A DNA stretch of 64,000 nt, taken from the NCBI GenBank assembly GCA_949300345.1, contig CASGDR010000001.1, positions 131,835 to 195,834 on the forward strand, given 5' to 3'. This DNA is from an uncultured bacterium (GTDB taxonomy: Bacteria; Bacillota_I; Bacilli_A; RFN20; CAG-826). The notes below the pieces were generated by a model, which did not search any database, was not told where the DNA came from, and was given only the letters and a program-made list of their open reading frames with translations. Numbering within the stretch: the stretch's first letter is position 1; the number at the start of each line of letters is the position of its first letter. A program made the translations under genes and the position numbers. Of the stretch, positions 1,977 to 58,664 are shown one piece after another.

Positions 1977-3272
1977 TTATTTGATATAGCCGCGGATAAG
2001 GGGCAGCTCGTCAGGCTTTTCTTTCAAGATTTTGAAGGCATGGAGGATGTTTTCCTTTTCCTCGATGGGCTTGCTGCTATGGGCGGTGGCCAAGACTTCG
2101 CCTTTTTCGACCTTGTCGCCGACTTTCTTGGCTAATACGATGCCGGCGGTCGGGTCGATAACATCCTCAAGGGTAGCCCGGCCGGCTCCTAATCTCATCG
2201 CGGATAGGCCGATGCCTAAGGAATCGATATGTCCCACATATCCGGATTCCTCGGCTTTTATTTCCTCAATATAGGGAGCAAGCGGGAATTTGCTTAAGTC
2301 TTCAAGGTAGGAGACATCTCCGCCTTGGGCCTTGAACATGGCTAATAGCTTCTGATATCCGCTTCCGTCATCGATGGCCTTTTTGATCCTCTGCTCCCCT
2401 TCTTCTTCGCTAGAGACGATCTTGGCCTGAAGCAGCATGATGCCGCCGGCCCTTGTGACCAGTTCTACCAAGTCCTTGGGGCCACGTCCCTTCAGAGTCT
2501 CTACGGCTTCCTTGACTTCGAGGATATTTCCTACGGCAAAGCCCAAGGGCTCTTCCATGCCGGAGATAATGGCCCGGGTATCGCGGCCCAGCCTATCGCC
2601 GATGGCCACCATTTCCTTGGCCAGATCCCTAGCAGATTCGAAGGTCTTCATAAAAGCCCCGGCCCCGTATTTGACGTCTAGCAATATGGCGTCGCTGCCG
2701 GAGGCCAGCTTCTTGGACATGACGCTGGAAGCGATGAGGGGGATGGATTCGACCGTCCCGGTCACATCGCGCAGGGCATAGAGTTTTTTGTCGGCCGGAT
2801 CGATGGATTTGGTCTGCCCGATGATGGCGATTCCAATGTCGTTGACCTGATGGATGAATTCCTCGGTGCTTAGGGCAATGCGGGTCCCAGGGACCGACTC
2901 CATCTTGTCTAGGGTGCCTCCGGTATGTCCAAGCCCCCTACCCGACATCTTGGCCAAGACCCCGCCGGAAGCCACGACCAAAGGTCCAAGGACCAAGGAG
3001 GTCTTGTCACCGACCCCGCCGGTGGAATGCTTGTCGCACTTGATGCCCCTTATTTGGCTAAGGTCGATGGTGTCCCCGCTATGGAGCATGCAGTCGGTAA
3101 GATAGGATGTTTCCTCGCTATCCATGCCCCTGAAGAGGATAGCCATCAGCAAGGCGCTGGCCTGGTAATCGGGCACCGAACCCTCTGTTATCCCCCTGAC
3201 GAAAAAAGCAATCTGCTCCCGCGTTAAGGCCAGCCCGTCGCGCTTGGCCTCGATGATGTCGACCATTCTCAT
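1977..3272 (-). CDS. pdp: Pyrimidine-nucleoside (thymidine) phosphorylase
   Basis: The ORF spans 1977..3356, but the canonical start MRMVDIIEAKRDG lies at the internal Met (ATG at 3272). The SGRGLGHTGGTLDK phosphate-binding motif is present. Confidence 0.85.
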   Translation of the reverse strand: MRMVDIIEAKRDGLALTREQIAFFVRGITEGSVPDYQASALLMAILFRGMDSEETSYLTDCMLHSGDTIDLSQIRGIKCDKHSTGGVGDKTSLVLGPLVVASGGVLAKMSGRGLGHTGGTLDKMESVPGTRIALSTEEFIHQVNDIGIAIIGQTKSIDPADKKLYALRDVTGTVESIPLIASSVMSKKLASGSDAILLDVKYGAGAFMKTFESARDLAKEMVAIGDRLGRDTRAIISGMEEPLGFAVGNILEVKEAVETLKGRGPKDLVELVTRAGGIMLLQAKIVSSEEEGEQRIKKAIDDGSGYQKLLAMFKAQGGDVSYLEDLSKFPLAPYIEEIKAEESGYVGHIDSLGIGLSAMRLGAGRATLEDVIDPTAGIVLAKKVGDKVEKGEVLATAHSSKPIEEKENILHAFKILKEKPDELPLIRGYIK

Positions 3273-3374
3273 GTGCCCATTATGGGCCATCCGGAGGGAT
3301 ATTTGAATAAGAAGGTCCGGCGCAGGCAATTTTGATTTGGACATTTTGCAAAGCAAACAAAACTCCTATAATAC

Positions 3375-4691
3375 TTGCGCATGGAACTCAGGGATACTTT
3401 GCCCAAAAGCCTAAGCGAGGAGTCCAAAGGCGCCCTCGAGGAAGCCCTCAGGGGAAGCGAAGCGACCCACGCCCTGCTCCTTAATACCGAAAAGATCTCG
3501 GACGCTTTGTTCTTTTCGCGCTATCCCCATATCAGAAAGCACCCCTATGTAGAGCACGCCTACCTCTACGACAAAAACGAATATCCCTTTGGAAAATCCA
3601 TCTATTACGAAAACGGCGCCATCTCCATCGAAGACGGGGCCGCGATGATGGTCAATTATTTCCTGAAGCCCGAAAAGGATGACATCATCCTCGATATCTG
3701 CGCCGCCCCGGGCGGCAAGTCCATCGGGGCCTCCTTGATGATGGAGGACAAGGGCTGCATCATCGCCAACGACATCTCCTATCCTAGGGCCAAAGCATTA
3801 AGCCAAAACATCGAAAGGATGGGGCGGGGCAACATCATCGCCGCTTCCACCGACTTTGTCTTCAGCCACGTCCATTTTGCCGAGATGTTCGACAAGATCT
3901 TGGTCGATGCCCCCTGCTCGGGTTCGGCCATGTTCAGGAAAGACCACCTCTCCCTTCAGGACTGGAGGGCCGAGAAGGTCAAGGCCAACGCCAAGAGGCA
4001 AAAAGACCTGCTGGAACTGGCCTATGGGATGCTTAAGCCCGGAGGAGTCCTGGCCTATTCGACCTGCTCCTTCTCATATGACGAAAACGAAGGGCAGATG
4101 CTTGCTTTCAAAGAAAGGCATCCGGAAATCGAATTCGTCAATTTGCCCGAGGACGAGGGACTCCACCATAACGAAGAACTCCCCCAGTCGGTGACCCTAT
4201 ATCCCCATGAATTTCTGTGGGGCGAGGGACAGTTCATCTGCCTATTCAAAAAACCCGGGGAACTCATCAAGACCCCACGCAAGGTCAAGGATGCCGACAA
4301 GTTCACCGAGAAGTATAAGGACTTCCTGGGGCAATACGGCCTATCCGAGCGCTCCAACGAGACGATGCGCAACAAGTTCTATTCGATTTACCAGCACTTC
4401 GATACCAGCCACCTGAATCTGCTCCGCTATGGGGTCAAGCTCTTTGAGATGCGCCCCATCTATATCCCCGACCACCATCTGGCCCACTTCCTCGACGATT
4501 CCTATTCCATCGCCGTCAAAGAAAGCGACATGAAGGCCTATATCAACGGGGAAACCTTCCCGTTAGACCTTCCCGATGGCTTCTATATCATCAGCTTCGA
4601 CCACATGAACCTCGGCTTTGTGAAGGTCACCAACGGGGTAGCCAAAAACCACTACCCCAAAGGGCTTAGGAAAAAGATCGAACTCTTCTAG
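3375..4691 (+). CDS. NOL1/NOP2/Sun-family rRNA (cytosine-C5) methyltransferase (RsmF/RsmB-like)
   Basis: 438 aa. SAM motif DICAAPGGKS and catalytic-cysteine motifs DAPCSGSAMFRKD and TCS are present. Confidence 0.8.
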   Translation: MRMELRDTLPKSLSEESKGALEEALRGSEATHALLLNTEKISDALFFSRYPHIRKHPYVEHAYLYDKNEYPFGKSIYYENGAISIEDGAAMMVNYFLKPEKDDIILDICAAPGGKSIGASLMMEDKGCIIANDISYPRAKALSQNIERMGRGNIIAASTDFVFSHVHFAEMFDKILVDAPCSGSAMFRKDHLSLQDWRAEKVKANAKRQKDLLELAYGMLKPGGVLAYSTCSFSYDENEGQMLAFKERHPEIEFVNLPEDEGLHHNEELPQSVTLYPHEFLWGEGQFICLFKKPGELIKTPRKVKDADKFTEKYKDFLGQYGLSERSNETMRNKFYSIYQHFDTSHLNLLRYGVKLFEMRPIYIPDHHLAHFLDDSYSIAVKESDMKAYINGETFPLDLPDGFYIISFDHMNLGFVKVTNGVAKNHYPKGLRKKIELF

Positions 4692-39810: not shown

Positions 39811-39836
39811 AAAAAGACCGGGGATTTCACTCCCCA
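39811..39836 (-). terminator. Rho-independent terminator overlapping stop of serine recombinase
   Basis: On the minus strand, GGGGAGTGAAATCCCC is followed by GGTCTTTTTAT. Confidence 0.55.
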
Positions 39837-41407
39837 GCCTTGATGGTGGCCTCATAGCCGCAATAGAATCTGAACGTTATTGATTTGTCCCTATGGACGA
39901 TTGCCTTCTCCAGCGTGAAATTGAATATCGCCTCATCCCAGTCGAGCATTGCCTCGCCTTTTCGGAGCGTCGCAAGGAAGGCTTCGAGGTTCCCGGCTTT
40001 CAGCCTCTTCCCCTCCTTCTCGCCGATGAGTTTCTTGCATTCCTCTTCCTTCCTTTTGTATTCATCCTCGAGCTCTGCGTACTTTCTTCGCCAAACTGCT
40101 TGATCCTGCGGGCTTCTGGTGTTCATCTTCACCAGCAGGTTGAACTCCTTCGACATCTCCTCGAGTTCCTTTTTTAGCCCGCCGATGTCCGCATCGAGCT
40201 TGGAAGTGTCGGTAAGCAACGACATCGCGGCTTGGATGTCATCCATGACCGTCTCCTTGCCCGAAATCATCAGGTTGTAGGCTTTCATGAACCTTGCCTT
40301 TATGTCCTCTTCCTCCAGGTTCGGCGTATGGCATTTGTTCCTGAACTTGTCGTTGCACTGGATGATCTCCTTTTCATGGGGAGTCCCGGAATGCCACTTC
40401 TTCTTTCCGTAGTACCCGCCGCAGTCCTCGCATATCAGCCTGGCCGCAAAAGGGTTCTTGTACGAGTAGGAATAGCTAAGCTCCTTCCTTCTGTGGATTT
40501 CTATCTGCACCAGCTCCCAGTCCTCCTTCGGGATGATGGTCGGATGCGAATCATGAACATAGTATTGAGGGACCTCGCCTTCGTTCTTCTTCGTCCTGTG
40601 CTGGAGGAAGTCGACCACGAAGCTTTTCTGAAGGAGGGCGTCGCCTTTGTATTTCTCGTTCTGGAGTATGGAGAGGGCGGTCGTCTTCGTCCACTTCGTC
40701 TTCCCCTTCGGCGTCAGTATCCCGTCCTTCATCAAGTCGGAGCAGATCTTGCCGATGCTCTCGCCCTTGAGGAAGCGGTAGTAGATCCTCCTAACGGTTT
40801 CCGCCTCCTGCTCGTTTATCCTGATCTCGCCGTTCTCGCCCTTTTCGTACCCGAGGAAGGCTTTGTAAGGCATGCTTACCTTCCCGTCGGCGAATCTCTT
40901 TCTCTGCCCCCAAGTGACGTTTTGGGAGATTGACCTGCTTTCCTCCTGAGCCAAGCTCGACATGATGGTGATGAGGAGCTCGCCCTTGGAGTCGAAGGTG
41001 TTGATGTTCTCCTTCTCGAAATAGCACTCGACGTTGTGCTCCTTGAGCTTCCTTATGTTCACCAAGCTATCGACGGTGTTGCGGGCGAATCTGGATATGG
41101 ACTTGGTGATTATCAAATCGATCTTCCCGCCGAGGGCATCGTCGATCATCCTTTTGAAGCCTTCTCTCCTTTTGGTGTTGGTCCCGCTGATGCCTTCGTC
41201 CGTGTAGACGCCCACGAGTTCCCAATCGGGCCTTCTTTTGATGTAATTGGTGTAATAGTCCACTTGGGCCTCATAGGAGGTCTGCTGCTCCTCTTGGTCT
41301 GTCGAGACGCGGGCGTAGGCGGCAACCTTCCTCTTCCTTAAGCTGCCTTGGGGAAGCCTGGTCAATGGATTTATGGTTGGCTCAATCTTGGTTATCGTTC
41401 TTGCCAT
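39827..41407 (-). CDS. Large serine recombinase (resolvase/recombinase/zinc-ribbon/coiled-coil), CcrB-sized
   Basis: 526 to 536 aa. N-terminal resolvase domain AAYARVSTDQ...Y with a catalytic Ser, a recombinase domain, a Cys zinc ribbon and a C-terminal coiled coil. The ORF extends to 41437. Start placed at MARTITK (41407). Confidence 0.8.
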   Translation of the reverse strand: MARTITKIEPTINPLTRLPQGSLRKRKVAAYARVSTDQEEQQTSYEAQVDYYTNYIKRRPDWELVGVYTDEGISGTNTKRREGFKRMIDDALGGKIDLIITKSISRFARNTVDSLVNIRKLKEHNVECYFEKENINTFDSKGELLITIMSSLAQEESRSISQNVTWGQRKRFADGKVSMPYKAFLGYEKGENGEIRINEQEAETVRRIYYRFLKGESIGKICSDLMKDGILTPKGKTKWTKTTALSILQNEKYKGDALLQKSFVVDFLQHRTKKNEGEVPQYYVHDSHPTIIPKEDWELVQIEIHRRKELSYSYSYKNPFAARLICEDCGGYYGKKKWHSGTPHEKEIIQCNDKFRNKCHTPNLEEEDIKARFMKAYNLMISGKETVMDDIQAAMSLLTDTSKLDADIGGLKKELEEMSKEFNLLVKMNTRSPQDQAVWRRKYAELEDEYKRKEEECKKLIGEKEGKRLKAGNLEAFLATLRKGEAMLDWDEAIFNFTLEKAIVHRDKSITFRFYCGYEATIKAGE

Positions 41408-42692
41408 ATAGCCTTTCCAGCTCCCTTCTTCTGGCATCTTCTTTCATCTCAGGTGTCCACGAATCCTTTCTCGACTTGAATTCGAAGTGCAGCGTCTTGA
41501 TGCTTCCGTCCATGAAGACGAAATCGACGTCCTTGCTTTCGTGGACGACTATCCTGTCTATCTTCTCCTTGAACGCCTTCTCGTCGAACTCCTTTATGCC
41601 CAACGCTTGGTTCGTCAGCTCGTAAAGGGTGTCTTCCCTAAGGGCGAGCGTCTGGCGGCATGCCGACTTCGAGAGGACGCTCATCGTCCCGCACGCCCAG
41701 AAGGTCCTGTATTTCGAATTCTTCCTCACGTAGTTCTTCCCGCATGTGGCGCACTTCAACTTCTTGGTGAAGGGGCTCAGGTTGTTGTTCGGTCCATAGC
41801 GGACCGGCCTTCTTTTCTCCATCAGCTCCTGCGCCCTGAGGAATTCCTCTTTGCCGACTATTGCATCGTGGTCCTCCGCGACCTTGTAAAGTGAGTATTT
41901 CCCAATATTCGCCTTGCAGTGCTCGTTTATGCCGCAAGAATACCTCCCCAGGACCAGCTCCCCTGTATAGGTCGGGTTCCTGAGTATCCATCTAACGGTG
42001 CTCTCCCTCCAAATGGATCCCATGGGCGAGGGGATCCCGTCCCCGTTGAGCCTCCTGGCAATCTTCTGGGTGCCGACGCCCTGTTTGGCGTACTCATCGA
42101 ATATCCTCCTTACTACCTTCGCTTCCTCCTCCTTGATTTCGTATCTTCCGTTCACCACCTTGTATCCGAAGAAATCGTGGAGCCCCCAGACCTTGCCTTC
42201 CTCGAAGAACTTGCCTACTTTCCACCTTACGTTGTTGGACATCGACACGACCTCCTCCTCGGCAAAACCTGCCAATAGGGAAAGCATCAGTTCCCCGTCC
42301 ACGCTCATCGAATGCATGTTCTGCTCCTCGAAGTAGACGTCGACGTTGAGCTTTTTTAGAAGCCTCGTCGTCTCCAAAAGCAGCATGGTGTTCCTCGCGA
42401 ACCTCGATATCGATTTGGTGACGATCATGTCGATTCTGCCCTGCTTGCAGTCCTCGATCATTCGATTGAATTCCGGTCTGTTGGCCTTGGTCCCGCTTAT
42501 CCCCTCGTCGGCGTAGATCCCGGCGAACATCCAGTCGGGGTTGCTTGATATGTAGTCCTGGTAATAGGACACCTGCGCCACAAATGAATGGAGGGTGGCG
42601 TCCTTGCTTACGGAGACCCTGCAATAGGCGGCAACCTTCTTCTTGCTCGGAAGGGTTGGCTTGGCTTTGATCTTCACTATTTGCCTATCCAT
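41382..42692 (-). CDS. Large serine recombinase (CcrA-sized), overlapping the downstream recombinase gene
   Basis: 436 aa with a resolvase N-terminus AAYCRVSVSKD, a recombinase domain and a zinc ribbon CATCGK. Confidence 0.8.
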   Translation of the reverse strand: MDRQIVKIKAKPTLPSKKKVAAYCRVSVSKDATLHSFVAQVSYYQDYISSNPDWMFAGIYADEGISGTKANRPEFNRMIEDCKQGRIDMIVTKSISRFARNTMLLLETTRLLKKLNVDVYFEEQNMHSMSVDGELMLSLLAGFAEEEVVSMSNNVRWKVGKFFEEGKVWGLHDFFGYKVVNGRYEIKEEEAKVVRRIFDEYAKQGVGTQKIARRLNGDGIPSPMGSIWRESTVRWILRNPTYTGELVLGRYSCGINEHCKANIGKYSLYKVAEDHDAIVGKEEFLRAQELMEKRRPVRYGPNNNLSPFTKKLKCATCGKNYVRKNSKYRTFWACGTMSVLSKSACRQTLALREDTLYELTNQALGIKEFDEKAFKEKIDRIVVHESKDVDFVFMDGSIKTLHFEFKSRKDSWTPEMKEDARRRELERLYGKNDNQD

Positions 42693-44071: not shown

Positions 44072-45532
44072 ATGATGAGATTCAACCTGGACTTTCTGAC
44101 GGTATTCACCCTGGTAAAGCAATCCCTGACGAACGACTTGTCGGAGAACGAGATTTACAGGCGCCTGATATGCCTCGGCAACGAAAATCTGGACGGAAAG
44201 AACGACCCCCATCGTCACATAACAGGTGAAACGCAGATCAATGGGTCCAGAAACTCGTCCATCATAGGCAAATCTTCGATTGAGGTAATGGCCCGCTCAT
44301 ATGACTCGCTTTTCAGCGATTATATGAGCGTCTCCACGCGGAAGCGGATGGTATCCGTTCTCAAGGAAATACTGAAATCGTGCAACTGGCCCGACCCAGA
44401 ATTGGAAATAGGTGAAGGCAGCGGATTTACGCTCGAATCGGTCATCAACGGGAAGAGCTTTTGCTTCCCCTACCTCCTTGCGGCTTTGGTTAAATTCACG
44501 GTGCCAAGGGAAAACCCGCACAGGAAAGACTTCAAGGAATACCGCGTCACTGTCGTCGACTGCTACAACAGCGCGCCGGATGAGAACCTGGATTTGGTTC
44601 CGATCGACCTTGCGCTCCCCCGCGAAAAGGACACTTCGAGAATCGACGGAGCCGAATTCCGGAGGTTCTTCACGGAGGTGAATTCCGAGAAGTTTCCGGA
44701 GCAGTTCAAAGGCGCGGGCGACGTGAAGATTTTTCGTCTGAACATCAGGAACTCCCGGTTCGACTACGAAGGCCTCTCGGGATTCCTCGAGGAGAACATC
44801 GAGCATTATGTGATGAGCTCGCTCGAGGAAAAGTCCTACTATGACGAGCAGAGGACAAAGCATCTCACGCACGACGCAATAAAGAGGTTCGCGGCCTCCG
44901 CTTCCGGCAAAGACCTCCGCGAAGTTTATTCGCGGCTCATGCTTTACGTCTTCATGGAAGGCGGCCTCGGCGCGCCGAAGATATTCAACGCCGTCGAGAT
45001 AAAGGACAAGAACATTAGGAGCGACGGTGTTTACTACCTGCGAAAAGGGGTTATTTCCGACAAGCCTATGCTCATCCTCGGCGCATCGCAAACCTTCCCG
45101 ACGCTGGATGAGGCCATGGAAAACGGGCTTGCCCAAATCGACGTGATTTCGAGAGAGCAGGACAAGATGCTGTCTTTCATAAACCCCGCGTTCCTACGGA
45201 TGAGATTCGAGCAAGATGATCTCTCCTACATAGTCGACCGTCTCATAAAAGCGGAAGGAATTCTACAGAACGACGCGGCGTTCGGAGTGTTCCTCTCCTA
45301 TTCGCTCGATGAGTCGAACGATGGCAACTTATCCTCTAACGAGTTCAGGCAGAAAGTAGAGGAAAGAATGGAAAGGGACATAGCCGATGCGGTTCCCATG
45401 ATTTACGCGAAGATCAAGGAGCACGGGCTGCAAAACTATGGTTTCTTCGTGTTCGTCCTTCCCCTAACGAACGTGGAGACTGACGCCGAGAAGGTAATAC
45501 GCGGATTCGCCGGAGGAGAAATGAATGGCTAA
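44072..45532 (+). CDS. Unknown 486 aa protein, first gene of helicase/nuclease module (candidate HamA/DUF1837-like, unverified)
   Basis: No signal peptide and no recognised canonical motif. There is a possible restriction-endonuclease-like E...ExK segment, LYVFMEGG...NAVEIKDK. It overlaps the downstream helicase gene by 8 nt. Confidence 0.5.
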   Translation: MMRFNLDFLTVFTLVKQSLTNDLSENEIYRRLICLGNENLDGKNDPHRHITGETQINGSRNSSIIGKSSIEVMARSYDSLFSDYMSVSTRKRMVSVLKEILKSCNWPDPELEIGEGSGFTLESVINGKSFCFPYLLAALVKFTVPRENPHRKDFKEYRVTVVDCYNSAPDENLDLVPIDLALPREKDTSRIDGAEFRRFFTEVNSEKFPEQFKGAGDVKIFRLNIRNSRFDYEGLSGFLEENIEHYVMSSLEEKSYYDEQRTKHLTHDAIKRFAASASGKDLREVYSRLMLYVFMEGGLGAPKIFNAVEIKDKNIRSDGVYYLRKGVISDKPMLILGASQTFPTLDEAMENGLAQIDVISREQDKMLSFINPAFLRMRFEQDDLSYIVDRLIKAEGILQNDAAFGVFLSYSLDESNDGNLSSNEFRQKVEERMERDIADAVPMIYAKIKEHGLQNYGFFVFVLPLTNVETDAEKVIRGFAGGEMNG

Positions 45533-48110
45533 CCGCGTCCAAGAGATTCTTTTCCCTCGGCTAGAAGCAAGCCCCGTACTGAAACTACTTTTCTCTAAGC
45601 TTCTACAGGCCTACACAAGACTTAATTTCGGGATGGCACCGCCATCATTTGCCGAAAAGGAGATTAACCAGCTCATATCGTTCGCAAGCCTGCTCTCCAA
45701 ATCGAACGATTCCGGCCAAAAGGTCATATCCGAGCAAATCGTGGCACTGCTCGGAAAGCTCTACCCCGCCTCGGAAAGCATCAGGAAAGCCAAGGCGGAA
45801 GTGCTTTCCTCATGCACAAACTACGTCGGGATGAAGGTGGAAAAAATGGAGGGAAGGAGCGACGACGTATTCCAGGAAATCAGCTCGGAAATCCAAATGG
45901 AATCGCTGAAGATTCCGTTTCAGGACGGCAAGTTCTTCATAGACGACCAAAAGGAGATATTCGACAGCTTCGAGAAATACCAATTCGTCAGCTACTCCGC
46001 CCCCACGTCGCTTGGGAAATCGTTCGTAATGAGGATCTACCTCAAATACAAGGTTGCCAGCGGATACCGAGGAAACTTCGCGATAATCGTCCCAACAAAG
46101 GCCCTCATCAACGAGATGAGGAACAGCGTCGTCGAAGAGGACCTGAAGGACCTTCTCCGGAAGATGCACTACAGGGAGGTTTCGTCGGTCAACGAGGTAT
46201 TCGTCACCGAAGACAAGGAATCGAAGTTCATCTTCATAGTGACACCGGAGAGGCTCCACTATCTCCTCAACAGCACCGACATAGCCATCGACTGCTGCTT
46301 CGTCGACGAGTCATACAAGATATCGGAGCCCGACTCAAGGAGCCTCTACTACTATCAGGCAATAAACCAGCTCCTTGCTCGGAACCCTAAGACGAAAATA
46401 TTCTTCTCGTCCCCGAACATACCGAACCCCGAAGTCTATCTCGAAACGATAAAGGCGCCCGGGACAAGATACAGGAAGGCGACCGGGTACTCGCCCGTCA
46501 GCCAGATCAAGTACCTCATCTCGCTGAAGGAAAAAGACCGGCCAATCAAGGTGTTCAACGACCTCACCCAGGTGTTGGAGGACACGGGCATGACGAACCC
46601 GTCCACGAACATCAACGACATAATATCCACGCTGAAGACGAAGGGCGGGAACATCGTCTATTGCTCAGGGAAGGACAAGACCGTTGAGCTTGCCCTGCAA
46701 TATGCCAATTTCCTGCCCGCCTTCCAGCCCAGCACGCCTGAGGAAAGGGAAAATCAGGAAAAGCTTGACGCCCTGGCTAAGAGCATCGAGCAGGACATCC
46801 ACGAGGATTACTACCTCGCCGCTCTCATGCGAAAGGGCGTCGCCTACCACGTCGGCTACCTGCCGAATTCGCTCAGGAACAGCATAGAGAAGGCGTTCAA
46901 GACCGGGCTCATAAAGACCATCTTCTGCACGAGCACCCTAATGGAGGGGGTCAACCTCCCCGCGGACAACCTCTTCGTGACGAGCACGAGGAATGGCTCA
47001 GAGGCCATGTCTCCGACTGCGTTCAAAAACCTCCTCGGTAGGATTGGAAGGATCAATTACAGTCTTTTCGGGAACGTCTACCTCTTAGTCATCCCTCGCT
47101 ATGCCAATGCCGAAAAGTACGAGGAGCTGCTCACGTCAAAGGTCGAACCACAAAAACTGTCGCTCGATAAGATAGTCACGGACGGGTCGATCGTCGACCA
47201 CATCAGCGACGATGCATATTTCTTCGGACGCGAGGACGAGGACCAGACGAAAAGGATAGCGGCCAACATCTACATAAACGACGTTAAGAATGGCACGGAA
47301 TCACTCATCAGGGAAAGGGTCGACTCAAAAAGCGAGGAGACATTGGTTGACAAGGCTATAAGGAAAATCGAATTGCTGGAAACATCGGAAAGCATAGACA
47401 TCTCACCGGACCAGCACGTGAGCCTCAAAAAGTACATAGAAAACGGCGGCCATTACCCCGATCCCGTGAACGGCCGGTTTGAACACAGCGACGTCTGGCG
47501 CTTCCTCAACGAGCTTTCGGACATTTATAAATGGGACAAGTACGAGTTCGAGACACTTAAGAACGGCAATTCGAACTCGTATTTCGCGACCGTCCTCTCC
47601 CAGTGGATGAGCGGACTCAAAGTAAAGGAAATCGTCGACCGATCGATAGAGAGCAAGAAAAAGAACCCATATGACGCGATCTTCGACAGAAAGCTCCACA
47701 TGAAGGTCGATTACATCGGCACGGTCGAGCAAAACAACATAATCATCAACGACACGCTCAGGACGATTGAGCAAACAATCCTTTTCACCATAGCGAACTA
47801 CTTCAGAGAGTTTTCGAGGGAATACAAGAACTTCCACCACCTGGAATATTTCGACAACGACTGGTACGAGTACGTAGAGTTTGGAACCAGCAACCCAATA
47901 ACCATCGCACTTCAAAGGAACGGATACATCCGCGAAACGGCCAAATGGATACACGAAAACGATTCAAAGTACCATCTGATCGATCAAACCCGCCGATGCA
48001 AATTCGCTCCATTCACCTTAGACCTCGACAACCTTTTGAAATGCGGCGAGCAGAAAGTAATTGAAGAGACGCTCGTCATCAAACTAAATGTCCCAGAGCT
48101 TTTTAGATAG
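45525..48110 (+). CDS. SF2 (Ski2/DExH-like) helicase, candidate HamB-like
   Basis: 861 aa with motif I SAPTSLGKSF, motif II CFVDESYK (DESY in place of DExH), a motif VI-like LLGRIGRIN, and FCTSTLMEGVNLP. Confidence 0.65.
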   Translation: MANRVQEILFPRLEASPVLKLLFSKLLQAYTRLNFGMAPPSFAEKEINQLISFASLLSKSNDSGQKVISEQIVALLGKLYPASESIRKAKAEVLSSCTNYVGMKVEKMEGRSDDVFQEISSEIQMESLKIPFQDGKFFIDDQKEIFDSFEKYQFVSYSAPTSLGKSFVMRIYLKYKVASGYRGNFAIIVPTKALINEMRNSVVEEDLKDLLRKMHYREVSSVNEVFVTEDKESKFIFIVTPERLHYLLNSTDIAIDCCFVDESYKISEPDSRSLYYYQAINQLLARNPKTKIFFSSPNIPNPEVYLETIKAPGTRYRKATGYSPVSQIKYLISLKEKDRPIKVFNDLTQVLEDTGMTNPSTNINDIISTLKTKGGNIVYCSGKDKTVELALQYANFLPAFQPSTPEERENQEKLDALAKSIEQDIHEDYYLAALMRKGVAYHVGYLPNSLRNSIEKAFKTGLIKTIFCTSTLMEGVNLPADNLFVTSTRNGSEAMSPTAFKNLLGRIGRINYSLFGNVYLLVIPRYANAEKYEELLTSKVEPQKLSLDKIVTDGSIVDHISDDAYFFGREDEDQTKRIAANIYINDVKNGTESLIRERVDSKSEETLVDKAIRKIELLETSESIDISPDQHVSLKKYIENGGHYPDPVNGRFEHSDVWRFLNELSDIYKWDKYEFETLKNGNSNSYFATVLSQWMSGLKVKEIVDRSIESKKKNPYDAIFDRKLHMKVDYIGTVEQNNIIINDTLRTIEQTILFTIANYFREFSREYKNFHHLEYFDNDWYEYVEFGTSNPITIALQRNGYIRETAKWIHENDSKYHLIDQTRRCKFAPFTLDLDNLLKCGEQKVIEETLVIKLNVPELFR

Positions 48111-48119
48111 GAGGATACC

Positions 48120-50063
48120 GTGGAAACTCCCGATAAAATCATTCAATCATGCGATCCTTTGGATCTTCTTTCCAAACTTTCATATCTCAAGTGGCTAATG
48201 GCGACAGACGCTTTTTCGGATAGAGACAAGCAGCCATTCACCTTTTTGGAAGTCAAATACGCACTGCATTACGTCATGTCCTATCTGCTGTCCCATAAGC
48301 TTGGCGAAGCAGCTAATCAATCCATACAGTATGAAACAATTTCCACCTTAATCTGCGCGCTTGCCCAAGAAGAAATAAATAGAAAGTTTAACGAGGAAGC
48401 GACACTGGATAAGCTGTCAGGAAAACTTCAATACACTCAGAAAGACTCAGGCGAATTGCTTCCTTTATTCTACTCCGTTCCATTTCGCCACATTTTAGAA
48501 GGGGAAGATGACATAATCTCAGCAAAATACGGATGCAATTCGAATGACATACTCAATGATTTCGCGACATTGGTGGGCGCTTTCAATAACTCAGTAAGAG
48601 CCAAAGGAATGAAAGTTTTCGATTTCGTCAATAGGTTCAACGACTACTGCAACTCCTCCGCCTTGGCAATCCAAAAAAACATGAAAAGTTACGGCTTGTT
48701 CAAAACAATGTCAGGCCGAATAGGCCAATTCGCAGAAGACGAATTTGATCACGGTTACCCAATTTCGCTAATTAAGAAATTCAGGAAACTCTTCATCAGA
48801 GTTGACGATATTTTGTACTGCCCAGATTTGGAGCTTGTCCCAAATCTAATCGTCCGCTGCGTAGAAAGAGCGATGCAGCAAGACAAAAGGCAAAATCCAG
48901 AATGGGATCTGCGGATGAAGGAAAGAACAGAGAAACTCGTGAATGGCGCCCTTTCGCACTATTTCAAAGGAGGGACATACCATGCGAACTCAGAGTTTGG
49001 CCAGAAAGAAAAAGGGGAAAGCGATGGCCTCTTTGAATTCTTGGGACATCTTTTCATAATTGAAGTTAAAGCCGGAAAGCTTAGTCCCGATCCTGTCGAG
49101 TCAAATAACACCACTGTTCATCAATCCTACAAGGCAACGATAGGAAAAGGGACCAAGCAATGTGACAAGGCAGAAAATCATATTCTCGAACATGGCGGCA
49201 AATTCAAAGAAGACGGCCACGAATTCCGAGTGAATTACGATATTGAGCACATCATCAAACTCGTCATTTCATTTGAAGACCTTTCCGCTGTTTTGCCGGA
49301 TGAGAATATTCAAACCCCTAATCACACAATTCTCATGACTTATTTTGATTTGCTTATAGTGCTTGACTATATAAACGAACCAATTCTTTCCCTCAAATAT
49401 TTCTTGGAGAGAAGAAAGGCATTGGAGCATTGCTGGGATATTTCAGACGAAATGATTTATCTGGGTTTATTTAGCGACGACATGAATTTTACGTATCGCT
49501 TAAATTCCCAACCCTTTTCTTCTTCGGCAGACAACTCCACAAATTTCGTCCTTGATCCGCATTCGTTCACGCACGAAATAGAGATGCACTACACGCAACC
49601 AGAACGATATCCCAAACCAAAAATACATTTGAGTGAATTTCAAAGGCTGGTATTGGCGGCACTCAATGGAAAGGATAGCATCTCGTCTAAATGGGCAATG
49701 CCACTGCTTATGCTTCCTACTCAATTCGGAGATAAATTGATGTTGCTTTTCCAAAGGAATAATTGTCACAGAGGTTTTGCCCCACAAGTAGGCATGGCTG
49801 GGTTCGCAAACGGAAAACATATCGCCGTTATGGTGTCAAAAAAGCACATAGGAGAACAAAGATATATCTATTATGCCATTGCGAATAGGTTCTTCAGAAA
49901 GCATGGAGAAGCGAAAGAAATCGTAAGCCTGATTGTTGACGGCCAGCGTTCCCACCTCGAGGAAATTGACCATTCGCGAAAGGAATTAAACTATCAAAAG
50001 ACCCTAGATGCGCTTCAACAAATAGAAGCCAAATTTGGGTTTAGACAAAAGATCTACAAATAA
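48120..50063 (+). CDS. Large PD-(D/E)xK nuclease-fold protein of unknown family (AT-rich)
   Basis: 647 aa. A central motif ESDGLFEFLGHLFIIEVKAGK gives D...E-V-K. It starts 9 nt after the helicase stop. Its GC is markedly lower than that of its neighbours. Confidence 0.55.
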   Translation: METPDKIIQSCDPLDLLSKLSYLKWLMATDAFSDRDKQPFTFLEVKYALHYVMSYLLSHKLGEAANQSIQYETISTLICALAQEEINRKFNEEATLDKLSGKLQYTQKDSGELLPLFYSVPFRHILEGEDDIISAKYGCNSNDILNDFATLVGAFNNSVRAKGMKVFDFVNRFNDYCNSSALAIQKNMKSYGLFKTMSGRIGQFAEDEFDHGYPISLIKKFRKLFIRVDDILYCPDLELVPNLIVRCVERAMQQDKRQNPEWDLRMKERTEKLVNGALSHYFKGGTYHANSEFGQKEKGESDGLFEFLGHLFIIEVKAGKLSPDPVESNNTTVHQSYKATIGKGTKQCDKAENHILEHGGKFKEDGHEFRVNYDIEHIIKLVISFEDLSAVLPDENIQTPNHTILMTYFDLLIVLDYINEPILSLKYFLERRKALEHCWDISDEMIYLGLFSDDMNFTYRLNSQPFSSSADNSTNFVLDPHSFTHEIEMHYTQPERYPKPKIHLSEFQRLVLAALNGKDSISSKWAMPLLMLPTQFGDKLMLLFQRNNCHRGFAPQVGMAGFANGKHIAVMVSKKHIGEQRYIYYAIANRFFRKHGEAKEIVSLIVDGQRSHLEEIDHSRKELNYQKTLDALQQIEAKFGFRQKIYK

Positions 50064-50111: not shown

Positions 50112-52166
50112 TCAATCATTCAACTGCTTTTCAAACGACTGCTTGATGATGTCCATGACGTCGTCCAACTGGCCCAAGTTATCCAGAATAACTTCGACGT
50201 TTCCATTCCCCCACCTTCCAACGCCGGTAACGTCTTTGCATATTCCCTTTGGATCGTTCACCTCGGAGAAATCCATGTTGATGGCGATTCTCAGCCTGCT
50301 TTCCTGAAAGACGATGTCCGTGAAATTCGTGTCCAGCTTATAGGCAACGTAGAGTTTTTTGAACTCCCTTCGCACCGAGGAAGACAAGTTCATAATCCTG
50401 GTGTCAAGTTTCTCGAAAAACATCTTAGTCAGTAAATTCGGCCTGTAGGAATCGAGACTGTACTTCGGCTCGTTTCCCTTATCCTGCACGTAGGGAGCGA
50501 GTTGCTCCGATGCAAGGTTTGGATATTGCCATATTTCAAGAGCCTTGGCTGCCAAAAGTTTGGCCCTTTCCTCGATCTTGTCTCCGTTCCAAGTGCTCTG
50601 AAGAACAATGTACTCATTAAGCCTACAAGCCGTCTGGCGGAATCCGCCTTTCATGACCATTTTCTCCATGAAAGGCTTGTCGCTCATCTCTGAGTTGTAT
50701 CCGGTTAGGGTGAGATTGCCGATGGTATGTAGATATTTCGAATGGGCTGCTTTCCAATCGCTTCCTAGCATGGCCTTCCAGTCGTCGTTTAGCCGATCGT
50801 TTTGGGGCATGATATGCTCGATCGTCATCGAAAGCACGTCCACCGGGGACTTGTTGTCGTAGTTTTCAAGGCGGTCAAGGATGTAGTTCCTGTTCCGCAT
50901 GTTGTAGATATCCCTGCTAACAAATGCCTTTTCGAATTCCTCGTCGTTAGGGAACTCCTTATACCCCTCACGGGTGAGGAAGAACGCCTTCAAGGAGACA
51001 AGGTAATCGTCCTTTTTTATTTCGTTTTCCAAGGTGGCGAATGTCTTGTTGAGCGAGTTTGTGGCAAGATCGCATATGCTTCTTCTCAGCACGTAGCTTA
51101 TACATAGACGGATGATTTCGCCCGTATCGGAATTGCTTACAAGGCCGGAAGCGTTGTCACGGAGGACTGCCATTAGAAATGGGTTGGCAACGCCCATGTT
51201 TAGTTCCTTAACCTCACGGAATAACTCGGCCAAATTCTGATCCTTGCTTCTGGCAAAGATGATGTCTGTGTATATCTTTCCCATCCGGTAGATGTCATTG
51301 CAAAGCTCTTCGCTGCTTGCGAAAGGACAGTTGATCCGCCACGATTTGAACTCGTCATACACGTTCGCCTTGTTCGGGATTCTGTGGTTATACATCGTCA
51401 AGTAGTCCCTGAAGAACGAATCCATGTTGGAGTCCTGGCTTTCGTGCCCGAAGAGTTCCTCGAATGGGCGCCACACCTTGGAATAAAGGCTTTCCTGAGC
51501 TTCCTTCGTCATCCCCATGAGGACGAAGTTTCTAATCAAGTCAGACTGCGAGAGAGCCTTGCCAGTGGAATTGAGACTTTCAAAGATGGCTTGCGGATCA
51601 TCACGGCCCCTTTCGAGCGTGATGATGACTATTTGCAGCTTCCCCGTTGCCTCAAACAGAGAATCGGTAGAGATTTCGTTTTTTGCAATCTTGCTTTTAA
51701 AGAACTCGTAGGCATTGAGCAGCTTCGACTTGGTTCCTTCTGCTATGGGCTTAGATTCGACGAGGGAAACGAGGACGTCCTTGTCCTCCTCCGTCAGCAG
51801 TAGCTTGTACTTCTGCTCGCCGCTTTCATACTGGTTCATGAGAAACGATGTGTTGATCTTCTGCTTTTCGAGATCGCCGTCTATGGAATCTCGGAGCGCG
51901 ATAAGGACGAGGGCCAAGGTCGTGAGGCGCTGCTGCCCGTCGATGACCATGTATTTTTGGACACCAGTTGGAGCCGTTTTCTCCGCAATGCAGACTATTG
52001 AACCCAAGAAGTGACTGTCCCTGTTTTCCTTCTGCATTTCCACGATATCGTCCCAAAGGCGGCCGTACTGGGATTCATCCCAGCTGTATAGTCTCTGGTA
52101 AATTGGGACTATGTACTGTTTCAGCCCGTTCAGCAATTCGAATATGTTCCCCTTGTTAGCGTCCAT
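50112..52166 (-). CDS. DUF262 (ParB/GmrS-like) + DUF1524 (HNH/His-Me, GmrD-like) fusion protein; GmrSD-family defense/type IV restriction-like
   Basis: 684 aa with N-terminal IYQRLYSW...IDGQQRLTTL and C-terminal TIEHIMPQN. It overlaps the hsdR stop by 11 nt. Confidence 0.75.
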   Translation of the reverse strand: MDANKGNIFELLNGLKQYIVPIYQRLYSWDESQYGRLWDDIVEMQKENRDSHFLGSIVCIAEKTAPTGVQKYMVIDGQQRLTTLALVLIALRDSIDGDLEKQKINTSFLMNQYESGEQKYKLLLTEEDKDVLVSLVESKPIAEGTKSKLLNAYEFFKSKIAKNEISTDSLFEATGKLQIVIITLERGRDDPQAIFESLNSTGKALSQSDLIRNFVLMGMTKEAQESLYSKVWRPFEELFGHESQDSNMDSFFRDYLTMYNHRIPNKANVYDEFKSWRINCPFASSEELCNDIYRMGKIYTDIIFARSKDQNLAELFREVKELNMGVANPFLMAVLRDNASGLVSNSDTGEIIRLCISYVLRRSICDLATNSLNKTFATLENEIKKDDYLVSLKAFFLTREGYKEFPNDEEFEKAFVSRDIYNMRNRNYILDRLENYDNKSPVDVLSMTIEHIMPQNDRLNDDWKAMLGSDWKAAHSKYLHTIGNLTLTGYNSEMSDKPFMEKMVMKGGFRQTACRLNEYIVLQSTWNGDKIEERAKLLAAKALEIWQYPNLASEQLAPYVQDKGNEPKYSLDSYRPNLLTKMFFEKLDTRIMNLSSSVRREFKKLYVAYKLDTNFTDIVFQESRLRIAINMDFSEVNDPKGICKDVTGVGRWGNGNVEVILDNLGQLDDVMDIIKQSFEKQLND

Positions 52167-55236: not shown

Positions 55237-55253
55237 AGCAGCCCTCCTTTCAT

Positions 55254-55281
55254 CCGTTTAAACGATAATTTATCGAAGCAG
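55254..55281 (+). repeat. hsdS recombination repeat R1 (forward; encodes NDNLSKQ)
   Basis: ccgtttaaacgataatttatcgaagcag. It is a 22 bp perfect inverted match to 55971..55992 and a 22 bp direct match to 57546..57567. Confidence 0.8.
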
Positions 55282-55344: not shown

Positions 55345-55968
55345 ATGGTTAACCTTACTGAAGTAGCTAGTTTTACGAATGGCTATTCATATAAGAGTGA
55401 TGATCTCAAGCCGAATGATGACATTGCCTTGGTCACCATTAAAAACTTTGATAGATATGGTGGATTCAAATTGGATGGCTTCAAAGAACTAATACCGTCT
55501 AGTCGAGTGAAGCCTGAGCAGTATGCTGATTTGTTCGATATTCTCGTAGCACACACAGATTTAACGCAAAACGCCGAAGTCATTGGTAATTCAGAAGTTG
55601 TGCTTTCAAAAGGGAGATATGGCAAACTGGTATTCTCGATGGACTTAGTTTGTGTAAGGCCAATAGGGAATTTTGGCAAATTCCTTCTAGCGGCTCTTTT
55701 GCACGACAGGCGCTTCAAAAAGCACTGTTTGGGGTATGTCAATGGGACTACAGTTTTACACCTAAATAAAAACGCTCTAAAAGAATATTGTTTTCTTGTT
55801 CCGGATGACCCTTCAATACTATGCAAGTTAGATTTGCTTCTCGGTGACTTATATCGAAAACAGTCAGAAATCATCGAAGAAAACATTCGCCTCTCAGAAA
55901 CAAGAGATCTTCTGTTAAAAAAGTTGTTGTCTGGTGAGACAGAATCGCTAGATTTTTTAGAAAGGTAA
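55345..55968 (+). CDS. hsdS: Silent partial hsdS cassette (single target-recognition domain plus conserved C-terminus)
   Basis: 207 aa from MVNLTEV, ending LLLKKLLSGETESLDFLER. It is in frame with the upstream repeat R1 and flanked by inverted repeats R1 and R2. Confidence 0.7.
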   Translation: MVNLTEVASFTNGYSYKSDDLKPNDDIALVTIKNFDRYGGFKLDGFKELIPSSRVKPEQYADLFDILVAHTDLTQNAEVIGNSEVVLSKGRYGKLVFSMDLVCVRPIGNFGKFLLAALLHDRRFKKHCLGYVNGTTVLHLNKNALKEYCFLVPDDPSILCKLDLLLGDLYRKQSEIIEENIRLSETRDLLLKKLLSGETESLDFLER

Positions 55969-55992
55969 GACGATAAATTATCGTTTAAACGG
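55969..55992 (-). repeat. hsdS recombination repeat R2 (inverted copy)
   Basis: gacgataaattatcgtttaaacgg is the reverse complement of R1. Confidence 0.8.
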
Positions 55993-56066
55993 ACGTAGCT
56001 CCCCCGCGGCGGGAGGCCGAGAGAAACAGCCGCGGAAAGCGCTTCTCCAGTAATAAGGAGGAGAAC

Positions 56067-57053
56067 ATGAAAGAAGAATTCGTCAACCTCGTCGTTCAGG
56101 ACATGCTTCCGTTCCTGAACAACGCTCAGCTCGAGAAGCTCAAGGAATCCCTTGAGAGAGAACTGATTGGGAAGCAAATCGTCGAAGAAAGAAAGGAGGA
56201 CAAGATGGACTGGAACGAAGGATACGTCCAGAAGTTCATTTCATCGAAAAGGCTTGAAGGGTGCTCCGAGAAATCGCTCCTTTACTACGAAAAGACGATT
56301 AACAGGGTCTTAGGCGAAATAGGAAAGCCCCTTAAGACTATCGTTACTGATGACCTTAGATCATATCTAACCGCTTATCAGGCAAAAAACGAGGTGAGCA
56401 AGGTCACAATCGACAACGTCAGGAGGATTCTTTCTAGCTTCTTCTCATGGCTGGAAGACGAAGACTACATCCTGAAAAGCCCTGCCAGGAGGATCCATAA
56501 GGTCAAGGCGACGATCAGCATCAAAAACACATTCACGGACGAAGAGATAGAGATGATGCGTGACGCCTGCGAATCCCCTCGCGACCTTGCGATAATCGAC
56601 ATGCTTTCTTCGACCGGCATGAGGGTGGGGGAGATGATCAAGCTCAAGCGCTCCGACGTTAACCTAGTCGAGAGGGAATGCGTGGTTCTCGGCAAGGGCG
56701 ATAAACAAAGAACCGTGTACTTCGACGCACGAACGAAGATTCATCTTCAAAGATATCTGGAGACTCGTACCGATTCTCTGGATTCCCTGTTTTTATCTAG
56801 ATGCAGGTCCGGCCAGCCGCTGGGCATAGGCGGAATAGAGCATCTTATAAAGAAATTAGGAACGCTTATCGGTATCAAAAAGGCACATCCACATAAGTTC
56901 AGAAGAACGTTAGCAACTGGTGCTATAGATAAGGGGATGCCAATTGAGCAAGTTCAACAGTTACTAGGACATAAGCGCATTGACACCACATTGATGTATG
57001 CAATGGTTAAACAAGCAAACGTCAAAGCTTCTCACAGACGATACATAGGTTAG
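56067..57053 (+). CDS. Tyrosine site-specific recombinase (XerC/D-like, shufflon invertase)
   Basis: 328 aa with the R (MRVGE), K (GKGDKQR), H-x-x-R (HPHKFRRT) and Y (TTLMYA) catalytic signature. It lies between the hsdS cassettes. Confidence 0.85.
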   Translation: MKEEFVNLVVQDMLPFLNNAQLEKLKESLERELIGKQIVEERKEDKMDWNEGYVQKFISSKRLEGCSEKSLLYYEKTINRVLGEIGKPLKTIVTDDLRSYLTAYQAKNEVSKVTIDNVRRILSSFFSWLEDEDYILKSPARRIHKVKATISIKNTFTDEEIEMMRDACESPRDLAIIDMLSSTGMRVGEMIKLKRSDVNLVERECVVLGKGDKQRTVYFDARTKIHLQRYLETRTDSLDSLFLSRCRSGQPLGIGGIEHLIKKLGTLIGIKKAHPHKFRRTLATGAIDKGMPIEQVQQLLGHKRIDTTLMYAMVKQANVKASHRRYIG

Positions 57054-57066: not shown

Positions 57067-58131
57067 ATGAAAAAAACCAGACTTGGTGACATTGCCATAA
57101 TAACGATGGGCCAATCGCCTGAATCCTGTTTTTACAATACTGAAGGGCGAGGAATGCCTTTCTTACAGGGCAGCAAAACATTTGGAAGAATATTTCCGAC
57201 ATTTTCCTCTTTTACTGAGAGAACTACTAAAACCGCATTGAAAGGGGACGTTTTAATGAGCGTTCGGGCACCTGTCGGCGACATTAACATCGCTCCAACT
57301 GATATGTGCATCGGCCGTGGTCTTTGTTCTATCAGAATGAAAAACGGCAACCAAAAATACCTTTTCTATCTTTTGAAGAATAACATTCACAATATTCTCA
57401 GCAAACAAAATGGAACAGTGTTTGCTTCCGTAAACAGAAAAGATTTAGAGAGCCTAGAACTGTATGTTTTGAACGAAGAGGAGCAGAAATCTTTCGGGGA
57501 TTTCTTGGCACTCTTCGATGAAAAAATTAATTTGAATGATGAGATAAACGATAATTTATCGAAGCAGGCAGAAGCTATTTTTGAAGCCGCCTTTGCCGAT
57601 TCGATGTATGGTGACAAGAAGATTTCCGACTTTATTTTGCCTAAGCGAGGCAAGTCCCTTCTATCAAAGGATGCAACTGCCGGAGATGTTCCAGTTGTAG
57701 CTGGCGGACTTGAGCCGGCAACATTTCACAATGCAGCTAATACGGTAGCTCCGGTCATAACGATTTCAGCTTCTGGGGCAAATGCCGGTTTTGTGAGGCT
57801 TTGGAACGTTCCGGTTTGGTCTTCTGACTCATCTTTCATTGATAAGACGATGACGGACATAGTCTATTTCTGGTATTTGGCGTTGAAGACCAGGCAAGAT
57901 GAGATTTATGGGGCCCAAACTGGTTCGGCCCAGCCACATGTTTATCCTCAGAATGTCAGTTCGTTACCAATCGGCGAATTAGATCAAGTGAAGGCGAAAG
58001 AGGTTAATAGCCTACTCACGCCTCTATTTGAAAAGATAGGAGAAAACGAACTAGAGAACCAAAAACTTGCAAGCCTAAGAGATTCATTGCTTCCGCGATT
58101 GCTCAGCGGAGAGATAAATCCGGCGGAATAA
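57067..58131 (+). CDS. hsdS: hsdS gene copy with two target-recognition domains, inverted relative to hsdM (silent donor or alternately expressed)
   Basis: 354 aa. TRD-A is followed by the central conserved NDEINDNLSKQAEAIFEAAF (repeat R3), then TRD-B and a C-terminus LLPRLLSGEINPAE. Confidence 0.75.
   Translation: MKKTRLGDIAIITMGQSPESCFYNTEGRGMPFLQGSKTFGRIFPTFSSFTERTTKTALKGDVLMSVRAPVGDINIAPTDMCIGRGLCSIRMKNGNQKYLFYLLKNNIHNILSKQNGTVFASVNRKDLESLELYVLNEEEQKSFGDFLALFDEKINLNDEINDNLSKQAEAIFEAAFADSMYGDKKISDFILPKRGKSLLSKDATAGDVPVVAGGLEPATFHNAANTVAPVITISASGANAGFVRLWNVPVWSSDSSFIDKTMTDIVYFWYLALKTRQDEIYGAQTGSAQPHVYPQNVSSLPIGELDQVKAKEVNSLLTPLFEKIGENELENQKLASLRDSLLPRLLSGEINPAE
57544..57567 (+). repeat. 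hsdS recombination repeat R3 (forward)
   Basis: ataaacgataatttatcgaagcag is identical to the core of R1 and inverted relative to R4. Confidence 0.8.
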
Positions 58132-58664
58132 AAGGTTCGCTTCGATAAATTATCGTTTATCTTGTTGTTTTGAGTAATTTTGTCATCAAGGTCGCTCAGG
58201 AGCCGAGAAACAGCTTTCTGCTCATCCAAACTTGGAAGATCAATTGAAATTTCGCCAAAAATATGGGAAGTGATCGTGTCAAATACAGATCCATTGGCCG
58301 CCTTTTTCAGTATACGGACAGCATTCTTCAAAAAATAGAAAAGGTAATCTGGGTCAACAAGGGTCGCATGTGGATGGATTCCAAAGCACGATTGGTTAAA
58401 AGCCATCGTCTTTTTTATCATGGCTATTTCTCCAACCGTTCCCCTTGCTGATATTACGATGTCATTTTCACTCAAGAGTTTAGTTGAACTATTTTTAAGT
58501 CCCTCTTCTGTAATACTTTTTTCCGTCTTCTCAACATATTTCGATCCCTCACGGATATCTTTGACTGAAATCCAAGGAATATCTCCATTCCAATAACACG
58601 GAACTGTTGTTTTGGGAGTGCCACCACCAATAATGTCGGAAATTTCGGAGATTTTATAAGTCAT
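57984..58664 (-). CDS. hsdS: Expressed-locus hsdS (TRD1) downstream of hsdM; reading frame leaves HsdS-like sequence after repeat R4
   Basis: MTYKISEISDIIGGGTP... is an N-terminal TRD, then KINDNLSK at repeat R4. After that the frame reads antisense of the plus-strand hsdS C-terminus, non-HsdS-like, until the stop at 57984. It overlaps the hsdM stop by 11 nt. Confidence 0.65.
   Translation of the reverse strand: MTYKISEISDIIGGGTPKTTVPCYWNGDIPWISVKDIREGSKYVEKTEKSITEEGLKNSSTKLLSENDIVISARGTVGEIAMIKKTMAFNQSCFGIHPHATLVDPDYLFYFLKNAVRILKKAANGSVFDTITSHIFGEISIDLPSLDEQKAVSRLLSDLDDKITQNNKINDNLSKRTFYSAGFISPLSNRGSNESLRLASFWFSSSFSPIFSNRGVSRLLTSFAFT
58141..58160 (-). repeat. hsdS recombination repeat R4 (inverted copy)
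   Basis: ttcgataaattatcgtttat is the reverse complement of 57544..57563. Confidence 0.8.

Follow-up and report, generated by a model that had tools for sequence, protein, structure and literature searches.

A NERD-like PD-(D/E)xK protein encoded behind a Hachiman operon: an exchangeable cassette and candidate stand-alone defence nuclease

The NERD nuclease ZwsA, a stand-alone defence protein of several domains that include VHS, DUF647 and S4, cuts RNA (bioRxiv 10.64898/2026.04.06.716636); it is the only characterised defence example of a NERD core that we found, and its target is RNA and not DNA. In Shedu (SduA, DUF4263) a single protein provides defence; it combines a PD-(D/E)xK nuclease core with N-terminal sensing domains that vary. 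Hachiman (HamA and HamB) occurs in several extended forms, namely type II with HamC/DUF3223 (defined in PMC8565338), the AbpAB Cap4 fusion, a protease-HamA together with the MBL pronuclease HamM, and a PezAT-associated form; we found no description of a NERD-like third gene in Hachiman in the literature. Here we analyse a gene located directly downstream of hamB in a 64,000 nucleotide stretch (the window) of contig CASGDR010000001.1 from an uncultured CAG-826 bacterium (assembly GCA_949300345.1). The gene (48120..50063, plus strand, GTG start) and the 647 amino acid protein it encodes are called X here, and according to the open reading frame (ORF) and its homologues X belongs to an uncharacterised NERD-like PD-(D/E)xK family. 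On balance the evidence tips towards X being an autonomous NERD-like defence nuclease, which is exchangeable cargo behind Hachiman and not a part of it.

In a comparison made by catalytic spacing and description only, X resembles ZwsA in the spacing of its E...D...ExK residues (E271, D302, E315 and K317 in X; E535, D567, E580 and K582 in ZwsA) and in being a multidomain single polypeptide in defence islands, but according to Pfam it has no VHS, DUF647 or S4 domain. X also lacks the C-terminal SEC-C zinc motif that is carried by many of its remote relatives; among 26 family members it is present in three. With its PD-(D/E)xK core behind an N-terminal domain in one polypeptide, X would operate much as Shedu does, but it matches neither DUF4263 in Pfam nor SduA in PADLOC and is not a member, so that the Shedu-like affinity considered in a preliminary description of the gene had to be given up. 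The extended Hachiman forms are similar in that an extra gene, here for a predicted nuclease, was added repeatedly and horizontally to the Hachiman core, and X lies in an operon-like unit with hamAB; X differs in being dispensable for close hamAB operons and in persisting without them. An assignment of X to HamC/DUF3223, Shedu, Cap4, the MBL pronuclease, the protease or PezAT was rejected, with no Pfam DUF3223 match and 0 PADLOC families. The catalytic fold and the genomic setting of X are thus of known kinds, and what is new is the three-domain architecture and the family.

Among 5.8 billion protein clusters a search retrieved only 18 full-length X homologue clusters (645–657 amino acids, 42–91% identity), and no Pfam domain was found among them. 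An exhaustive search of 1.84 billion representatives with the X profile yielded 473 proteins at E ≤ 1e-3, of which 17 had E ≤ 1e-30; many of the 473 are 620–820 amino acids long and are aligned over almost the entire profile, and the approximately 470 representatives of the family are clusters at 50% identity. Only two proteins were added by a word-indexed search using the deep X alignment. JGI metagenomes yielded only three X loci, and a scan of the GTDB species representatives with the X profile found nothing. Sequence searches with X against Pfam, NCBIfam, PADLOC and PHROGs gave no match, nor did searches of PDB sequences with a single-sequence query or a profile. Judged from these model searches the family is undescribed, and since no Pfam, NCBIfam or PADLOC model matches X, defence finders miss X and its close family.

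The alignment of close homologues (n = 19) has invariant G299, E300, S301, D302, E315-x-K317, K320 and S322-P323-D324, and in an alignment of 26 sequences reaching down to 15% identity E271, E300, D302, E315, K317, Q347, R431, D443 and E444 are still invariant. Four of these residues, E300, D302, E315 and K317, lie in the motif ESDGLFEFLGHLFIIEVKAGK (49017..49079, plus strand; residues 300–320), and the catalytic motif residues are intact in all ten X copies examined, including copies without hamAB (solo copies). Pairwise ratios of nonsynonymous to synonymous divergence (dN/dS) are 0.16–0.28, with 0.18 between two solo copies. X is a real gene under purifying selection.

X itself does not match the NERD model PF08378 (gathering score 22.1 bits), even at E ≤ 0.1, but 10 of the 26 family members match it at E ≤ 0.01, and one of them, P0062, reaches the gathering score with 22.3 bits. 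With X below the model and ten relatives matching it, X is NERD-like by transitive evidence, and the preliminary description, which had offered this affinity as one possibility, was right at the level of remote relationship.

An AlphaFold2 model of X calculated from a 19-sequence alignment (mean predicted local distance difference test score (pLDDT) 74, predicted template modelling score 0.65) shows three parts. The N-terminal domain (48120..48884, plus strand; residues 1–255) was classed as all-helical by AlphaFold2 and DSSP; it consists mostly of helices and has only two or three short strands, around residues 198–233, has pLDDT values mostly of 78–95 and contains the invariant elements DLLxKLxYLxW and a basic SLIKKxRK patch. 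It is also present in the stand-alone remote homologues described below. The predicted PD-(D/E)xK core (48885..49424, plus strand; residues approximately 256–435), delimited by AlphaFold2, DSSP and the invariant residues, has the order helix 260–281, strand 286–293, strand 300–307, strand 310–317, helix 333–358, strand 361–370 and strand 378–384 with pLDDT values of 78–90. In this model E271 is located on α1, D302 on β2, E315 and K317 on β3, and Q347 on α2, so that an acidic residue on β2, a (D/E)xK on β3 and a Glu on the preceding helix are all present, and the core is predicted to have the canonical α-β-β-β-α-β arrangement of PD-(D/E)xK nucleases. The post-core region (49425..50060, plus strand) starts with a linker that is disordered or of low confidence (residues 436–503, pLDDT < 50) and carries the invariant D443 and E444, with R431 listed there as well; it ends with an α/β domain (residues approximately 504–640, pLDDT 66–93). 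The folds of both flanking domains are unassigned, and the N- and C-terminal regions gave no match in Pfam, NCBIfam, PADLOC, PHROGs, PDB and BFVD.

The preliminary description had recognised ESDGLFEFLGHLFIIEVKAGK as a restriction-endonuclease-like motif, which agrees with the invariance of the catalytic residues and with their position inside the nuclease fold of the AlphaFold2 model. Its statement that each flank exceeds 250 amino acids and resembles nothing recognisable stands for the missing library matches and for the N-terminal region (approximately 255 amino acids), but the region behind the core comprises only approximately 210 amino acids. Foldseek searches with the model returned PD-(D/E)xK nucleases as top matches (ACE1/Cas4, McrC, SSO0001, Can2, Cdn1 and MGME1), all of them weak (E ≥ 0.02, best E 0.02, query-normalised TM score ≤ 0.17). 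Phage Cas4- and RecB-like proteins were at the top of the BFVD search, and X shares with them the conserved Gln on the helix after β3; in contrast to the Cas4/RecB-like proteins and McrC, the deep X family has no conserved set of Fe-S cysteines, and there is no match at the sequence level.

The two genes upstream of X constitute a complete Hachiman system, HamA plus HamB, and X is found 9–11 nucleotides behind hamB in three Hachiman lineages (the window and L007; L005, L008 and L015; L010). Identity to the window drops from 70% in the L005 lineage to 42% in L010 for HamB and from 52% to 28% for HamA, whereas X is approximately 50% identical among all three lineages. Synonymous divergence (dS) is mismatched as well: between L005 and L008 it is 0.224 for X versus 0.051 for hamB and 0.080 for hamA, and the opposite holds for the window and L007 (0.278 for X versus 0.49 for hamB and 0.405 for hamA). 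Together with a step in base composition at the hamB end (see below), these incongruent identities and divergences support an evolutionary history of X separate from that of the helicase gene, in line with what had been suggested from composition.

Co-occurrence of X and hamAB is not obligate in either direction. X is present without hamAB in L001, L003, L012, L013 and L014. In four of these loci the solo X is of full length and has kept all nine invariant residues, and a remnant of 25–36 codons (75–105 nucleotides) from the hamB 3′ end is located directly upstream (L001, 9907–9981; L003, 7891–7998; L013, 3971–4048; L014, 7884–7961), left by two different deletion junctions, one in L001, L013 and L014 and one in L003. 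The remnant is approximately as conserved as coding sequence and might carry a signal that drives X expression. In the fifth locus, L012, no hamB was found within 160 nucleotides upstream of X. Conversely, hamAB is found without X in L016, L017, L025–L030 and 75 viral-contig loci. In L016, whose HamB is 95% identical to that of L005, a hairpin follows hamB instead of X. The HamB proteins of L029 and L030 are 85% identical to that of L005, and here an unrelated 245 amino acid ORF starts 11 nucleotides after hamB (L029, 13042–13779; L030, 7846–8583). This ORF has no Pfam match but contains an FEHFEID...K stretch and could encode another small nuclease. The long-HamA operons of L017 and L025–L028 have other genes or nothing in place of X, and in L015 X is truncated to 196 amino acids. 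In L025–L028 (13197–15166 in L025 coordinates) ORFs for a 467 amino acid protein and a 189 amino acid lipoprotein-like protein start 185 nucleotides after hamB; no Pfam match is recorded for either, and scanning the 467 amino acid ORF directly against Pfam gave none.

In comparisons among operons with X, with another gene or with nothing in this place, homology stops exactly at the hamB stop codon. The possibility that the 3′ tail of hamB belongs to the mobile X cassette is not supported, with homology breaking at this codon and the INVPELF tail being an intrinsic feature of HamB. Intact copies of X exist without hamAB and intact hamAB exists without X, and X is a horizontally exchanged cassette.

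The position behind hamB was also inspected in the 75 further Hachiman loci, all from viral contigs, and within 5 kb no gene of the X family was present in any of them. More than 600 nucleotides downstream of hamB are available in 63 of them, and here 32 have a plus-strand ORF of at least 60 amino acids that starts at most 150 nucleotides from the hamB stop, 10 have a convergent next gene and 21 have neither. Annotation of ten ORFs that overlap hamB or lie at most 26 nucleotides behind it gave a McrB-like AAA_5 protein, two GmrSD, a type III Mod, an HsdR, an HsdM, a GIY-YIG and a T5orf172 protein, and two ORFs without Pfam match. Seven of the ten carry defence-type domains (McrB-like AAA_5, GmrSD twice, type III Mod, HsdR, HsdM and GIY-YIG). 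Since GmrSD, McrB-like and type I and III restriction-modification (RM) genes occupy this slot, a position close behind hamB on the same strand is nothing unusual for a defence gene that acts autonomously.

Remote homologues with the full three-domain architecture are stand-alone genes. P0019 stands alone in L021 and P0168 is located in a defence island among genes for GmrSD, SIR2 and RNase_T; an unrelated chromosomal region is also among the settings of these homologues. Other remote relatives are encoded on plasmids, one on the Lactococcus plasmid pUCCL637D, where RefSeq calls it a 'NERD domain-containing protein', and one on a Photobacterium plasmid. Neither HamA nor HamB was found at the loci of the remote homologues. 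On pUCCL637D (L023, 5358–8718), which also carries AbiE, an IS30 insertion separates the X relative from its SEC-C-bearing C-terminus. The preliminary description had left three options for X, a stand-alone nuclease, a Shedu- or NERD-like protein and an effector arm of the helicase module encoded upstream. The last of these does not fit with a complete Hachiman system upstream, near-identical hamAB without X, intact X without hamAB and a slot that holds autonomous defence genes; of the three, a stand-alone nuclease has the best support.

The junction between hamB and X is compact. A Shine–Dalgarno sequence, AGGAGG (48109..48114, plus strand), can be read from the sequence 5 nucleotides before the GTG of X and overlaps the hamB stop codon TAG (48108–48110); an equivalent TAG-GAG/GGA arrangement with a gap of 9–11 nucleotides is present in L005, L010 and L007. 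No terminator-like site was seen between the two genes, and consensus scans for internal promoters and terminators around the junction gave site numbers no greater than those in shuffled sequence. X probably shares a transcript with hamAB and is probably coupled to hamB in translation.

Base composition changes at or near the same place. GC content is 0.417 in X versus 0.506 in hamB and 0.519 in hamA, and GC content at third codon positions (GC3) is 0.458 in X versus 0.719 in hamB and 0.700 in hamA, which bears out the drop relative to the adjacent helicase gene seen earlier by eye. A two-state change-point model places the GC3 step at 47,876, with a gain of 64 in log-likelihood (lnL) over the single-state model and a 2-lnL support interval of 47864..48086 (0.72 to 0.47). 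Therefore the drop is real, and it falls either where hamB and X meet or within the final approximately 80 codons of hamB. The step is also present in L010 (0.74 to 0.42) and in L007 and is absent from L005, which is uniformly low in GC. To the right of X a GC content of 0.41–0.49 continues through much of the island, and X is therefore not its sole AT-rich segment.

An alternative is that X is a third component of this Hachiman subtype, an accessory or replacement nuclease that would be released or activated by HamB and would compensate for a degenerate DUF1837 site in HamA. We consider this rather unlikely, but several observations speak for it. The hamA gene (44072..45532, plus strand, 486 amino acids) encodes the long type of HamA, a helical N-domain followed by DUF1837 (PF08878, E = 1.6e-17, residues 237–465; PADLOC HamA1), and hamB (45525..48110, plus strand, 861 amino acids) encodes a superfamily 2 helicase that matches PADLOC HamB1 PDLC00190 over its full length (E = 1.8e-248) as well as Pfam DEAD and Helicase_C. 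Long HamA is rare, with only nine clusters found, and its only PDB relative is AbpA (9wh1). In the alignment its DUF1837 has no conserved (D/E)xK, and the segment where ExK is expected reads GASQ, GTSS, GSSN or GASD. This segment was placed by alignment and by what we take to be the canonical motif, which limits the weight of the argument for a third component. An AlphaFold2 model of HamA (mean pLDDT 55) is confident only for the helical N-domain (approximately 180 amino acids), and a fold search with this domain was uninformative. HamA proteins with extra N-domains have been reported to lack the PD-(D/E)xK site and to act as scaffolds (PMC11914072), and the N-domain here is predicted to be all-helical. 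The (D/E)xK of long HamA appears to be missing and its N-domain appears helical and not nuclease-like, which would leave room for a nuclease acting in trans. Hachiman is moreover known to recruit nucleases, as in the Cap4 fusion and the MBL nuclease–protease pairs.

The genomic distribution adds to these points. The 9–11 nucleotide spacing with the Shine–Dalgarno sequence over the stop codon is kept in three lineages, including one with a HamB only 42% identical, and although X has moved between operons, its position in them is always the same. Where enough upstream sequence is available, all members of the close X family are located behind hamB or a hamB remnant, except that of L012. Such a near-exclusive linkage exceeds what random packing in islands would give and could mean functional coupling. 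In addition, dN/dS is 0.74 in the youngest pair of solo copies, L001 and L013 (dN 0.012, dS 0.016), where constraint has perhaps been relaxed after the loss of hamAB. Together with the state of long HamA and with a fold search in which no match of the X model reached significance, these observations weigh against an autonomous NERD-like nuclease.

A third component of Hachiman is difficult to reconcile with the long-HamA operons that have no X (L016, L017, L025–L028 and L029/L030), according to which this Hachiman type does not need X, with the solo copies that stay intact, and with the three-domain remote homologues that stand alone. The equally tight position of GmrSD, McrB-like and type I and III RM genes behind hamB also counts against it, as does the lack of detectable similarity between X and HamA; with an hhalign probability of 0.07%, X was rejected as a HamA paralogue. 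A more far-reaching version, in which X would be a trans-acting effector controlled by HamB, the dead-site long HamA would be a scaffold, and swappable nuclease cassettes (X, the 245 amino acid ORF of L029) would make up a modular 'effector-swap' Hachiman, seems improbable to us. We keep to the reading of X as an autonomous nuclease carried as cargo.

On its other side X is followed at a distance of 48 nucleotides by a convergent gene for GmrSD with a fused C-terminal DUF5655 (50112–52166, minus strand), which also matches PADLOC PDC-S18. X might accordingly be the endonuclease of a restriction-type pairing, either a type IV-like partner of this GmrSD or an orphan restriction enzyme balanced by methyltransferases of the island. 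A convergent GmrSD is also found 48 nucleotides downstream in L007 and 10 nucleotides downstream in L012 (X 45% identical; GmrSD at 2146–4218), P0168 is two genes away from a GmrSD gene, and RM genes are densely clustered at other X loci. L005, L008, L010, L001 and L003 have a different downstream neighbour, however, the two GmrSD proteins are just 33% identical, and X has no consistent link to a methyltransferase. GmrSD, a complete enzyme in itself, is ubiquitous in defence islands. Its recurrence convergent to or near X in the window, L012 and P0168 may be coincidence, and we regard a restriction pairing as very unlikely.

Further to the right hsdR, an hsdS/integrase shufflon and hsdM follow. 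The segment 55253–58187 is an apparent phase-variable shufflon for type I RM specificity, with hsdS fragments at 55383–56177, 57067–58131 and 57984–58664 and an integrase at 56067–57053; the tyrosine recombinase lies between copies and half-copies of hsdS. Perfect inverted repeats of 21–23 nucleotides with the core TAAACGATAATTTATCG are located at 55253–55279, 55971–55993 and 58139–58159, and their longer arms are 82–88% identical.

To the left of hamAB-X the window contains two tandem large serine recombinases (Resolvase, Recombinase and Zn_ribbon_recom domains; 39827–42692, minus strand) and small ORFs. At 39–40 kb GC falls to 0.39, which may mark the edge of the island, and genes for DegV and SpoU flank the defence region. 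The same backbone of recombinases, small ORFs and hamAB-X is present in L005 and L008 (1–2423), loci of 29% GC whose proteins are only 50–70% identical, which suggests that it is a conserved element type carrying variable defence cargo. Complete E. coli genomes gave no match to X or to 44 kb of the window, so the host is not an enterobacterium, and the DegV and SpoU neighbours suggest a Firmicute. The region is the compact defence cargo of a mobile element, probably in a Firmicute.

X could then serve the element itself and not the defence of the host, for example if serine-recombinase or prophage-like elements used it as a nuclease for DNA processing, exclusion or addiction. The backbone shared by the window, L005 and L008 would fit with this, as would the L010 operon, which adjoins a phage-type replication module, and the remote relatives on plasmids. 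X is, however, also present in chromosomal contexts without recombinases (L001, L003), searches of 2.9 million viral contigs and 50,697 phage genomes retrieved no family member, and the immediate neighbours of X are always defence genes. Of all explanations put forward here, we give this one the least credence.

As an autonomous defence protein X would be a metal-dependent PD-(D/E)xK nuclease of the NERD branch, in which the nuclease core lies between a helical domain at the N-terminus and an α/β domain at the C-terminus. It sits in the variable cargo position right after the hamB stop of a rare long-HamA operon and is probably read through from the hamAB transcript, yet it would form a separate defence layer. 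Cleavage would be carried out by the site formed by E271, D302, E315 and K317, and the flanking domains may sense or bind the target or regulate the nuclease. Its nuclease activity and its role in defence are inferred. The putative substrate may be DNA or RNA; given that ZwsA cuts RNA, a DNA substrate cannot be taken for granted.

As a candidate for a new single-gene defence system X is credible, and its locus is a clean case of cassette exchange, though neither comes as a conceptual surprise. Should X prove to be an autonomous defence nuclease, it would represent a new single-gene system with a family of approximately 470 cluster representatives, and its two unassigned domains would be new candidate modules for sensing or target recognition on a NERD core. 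If it were instead an effector dependent on HamB, a trans-nuclease architecture would be added to Hachiman. At this locus the recombination boundary can be placed to the nucleotide, precisely on the hamB stop codon, where different cargo genes have been swapped, and this is informative about the way in which compact defence cassettes are put together on serine-recombinase elements and prophages.

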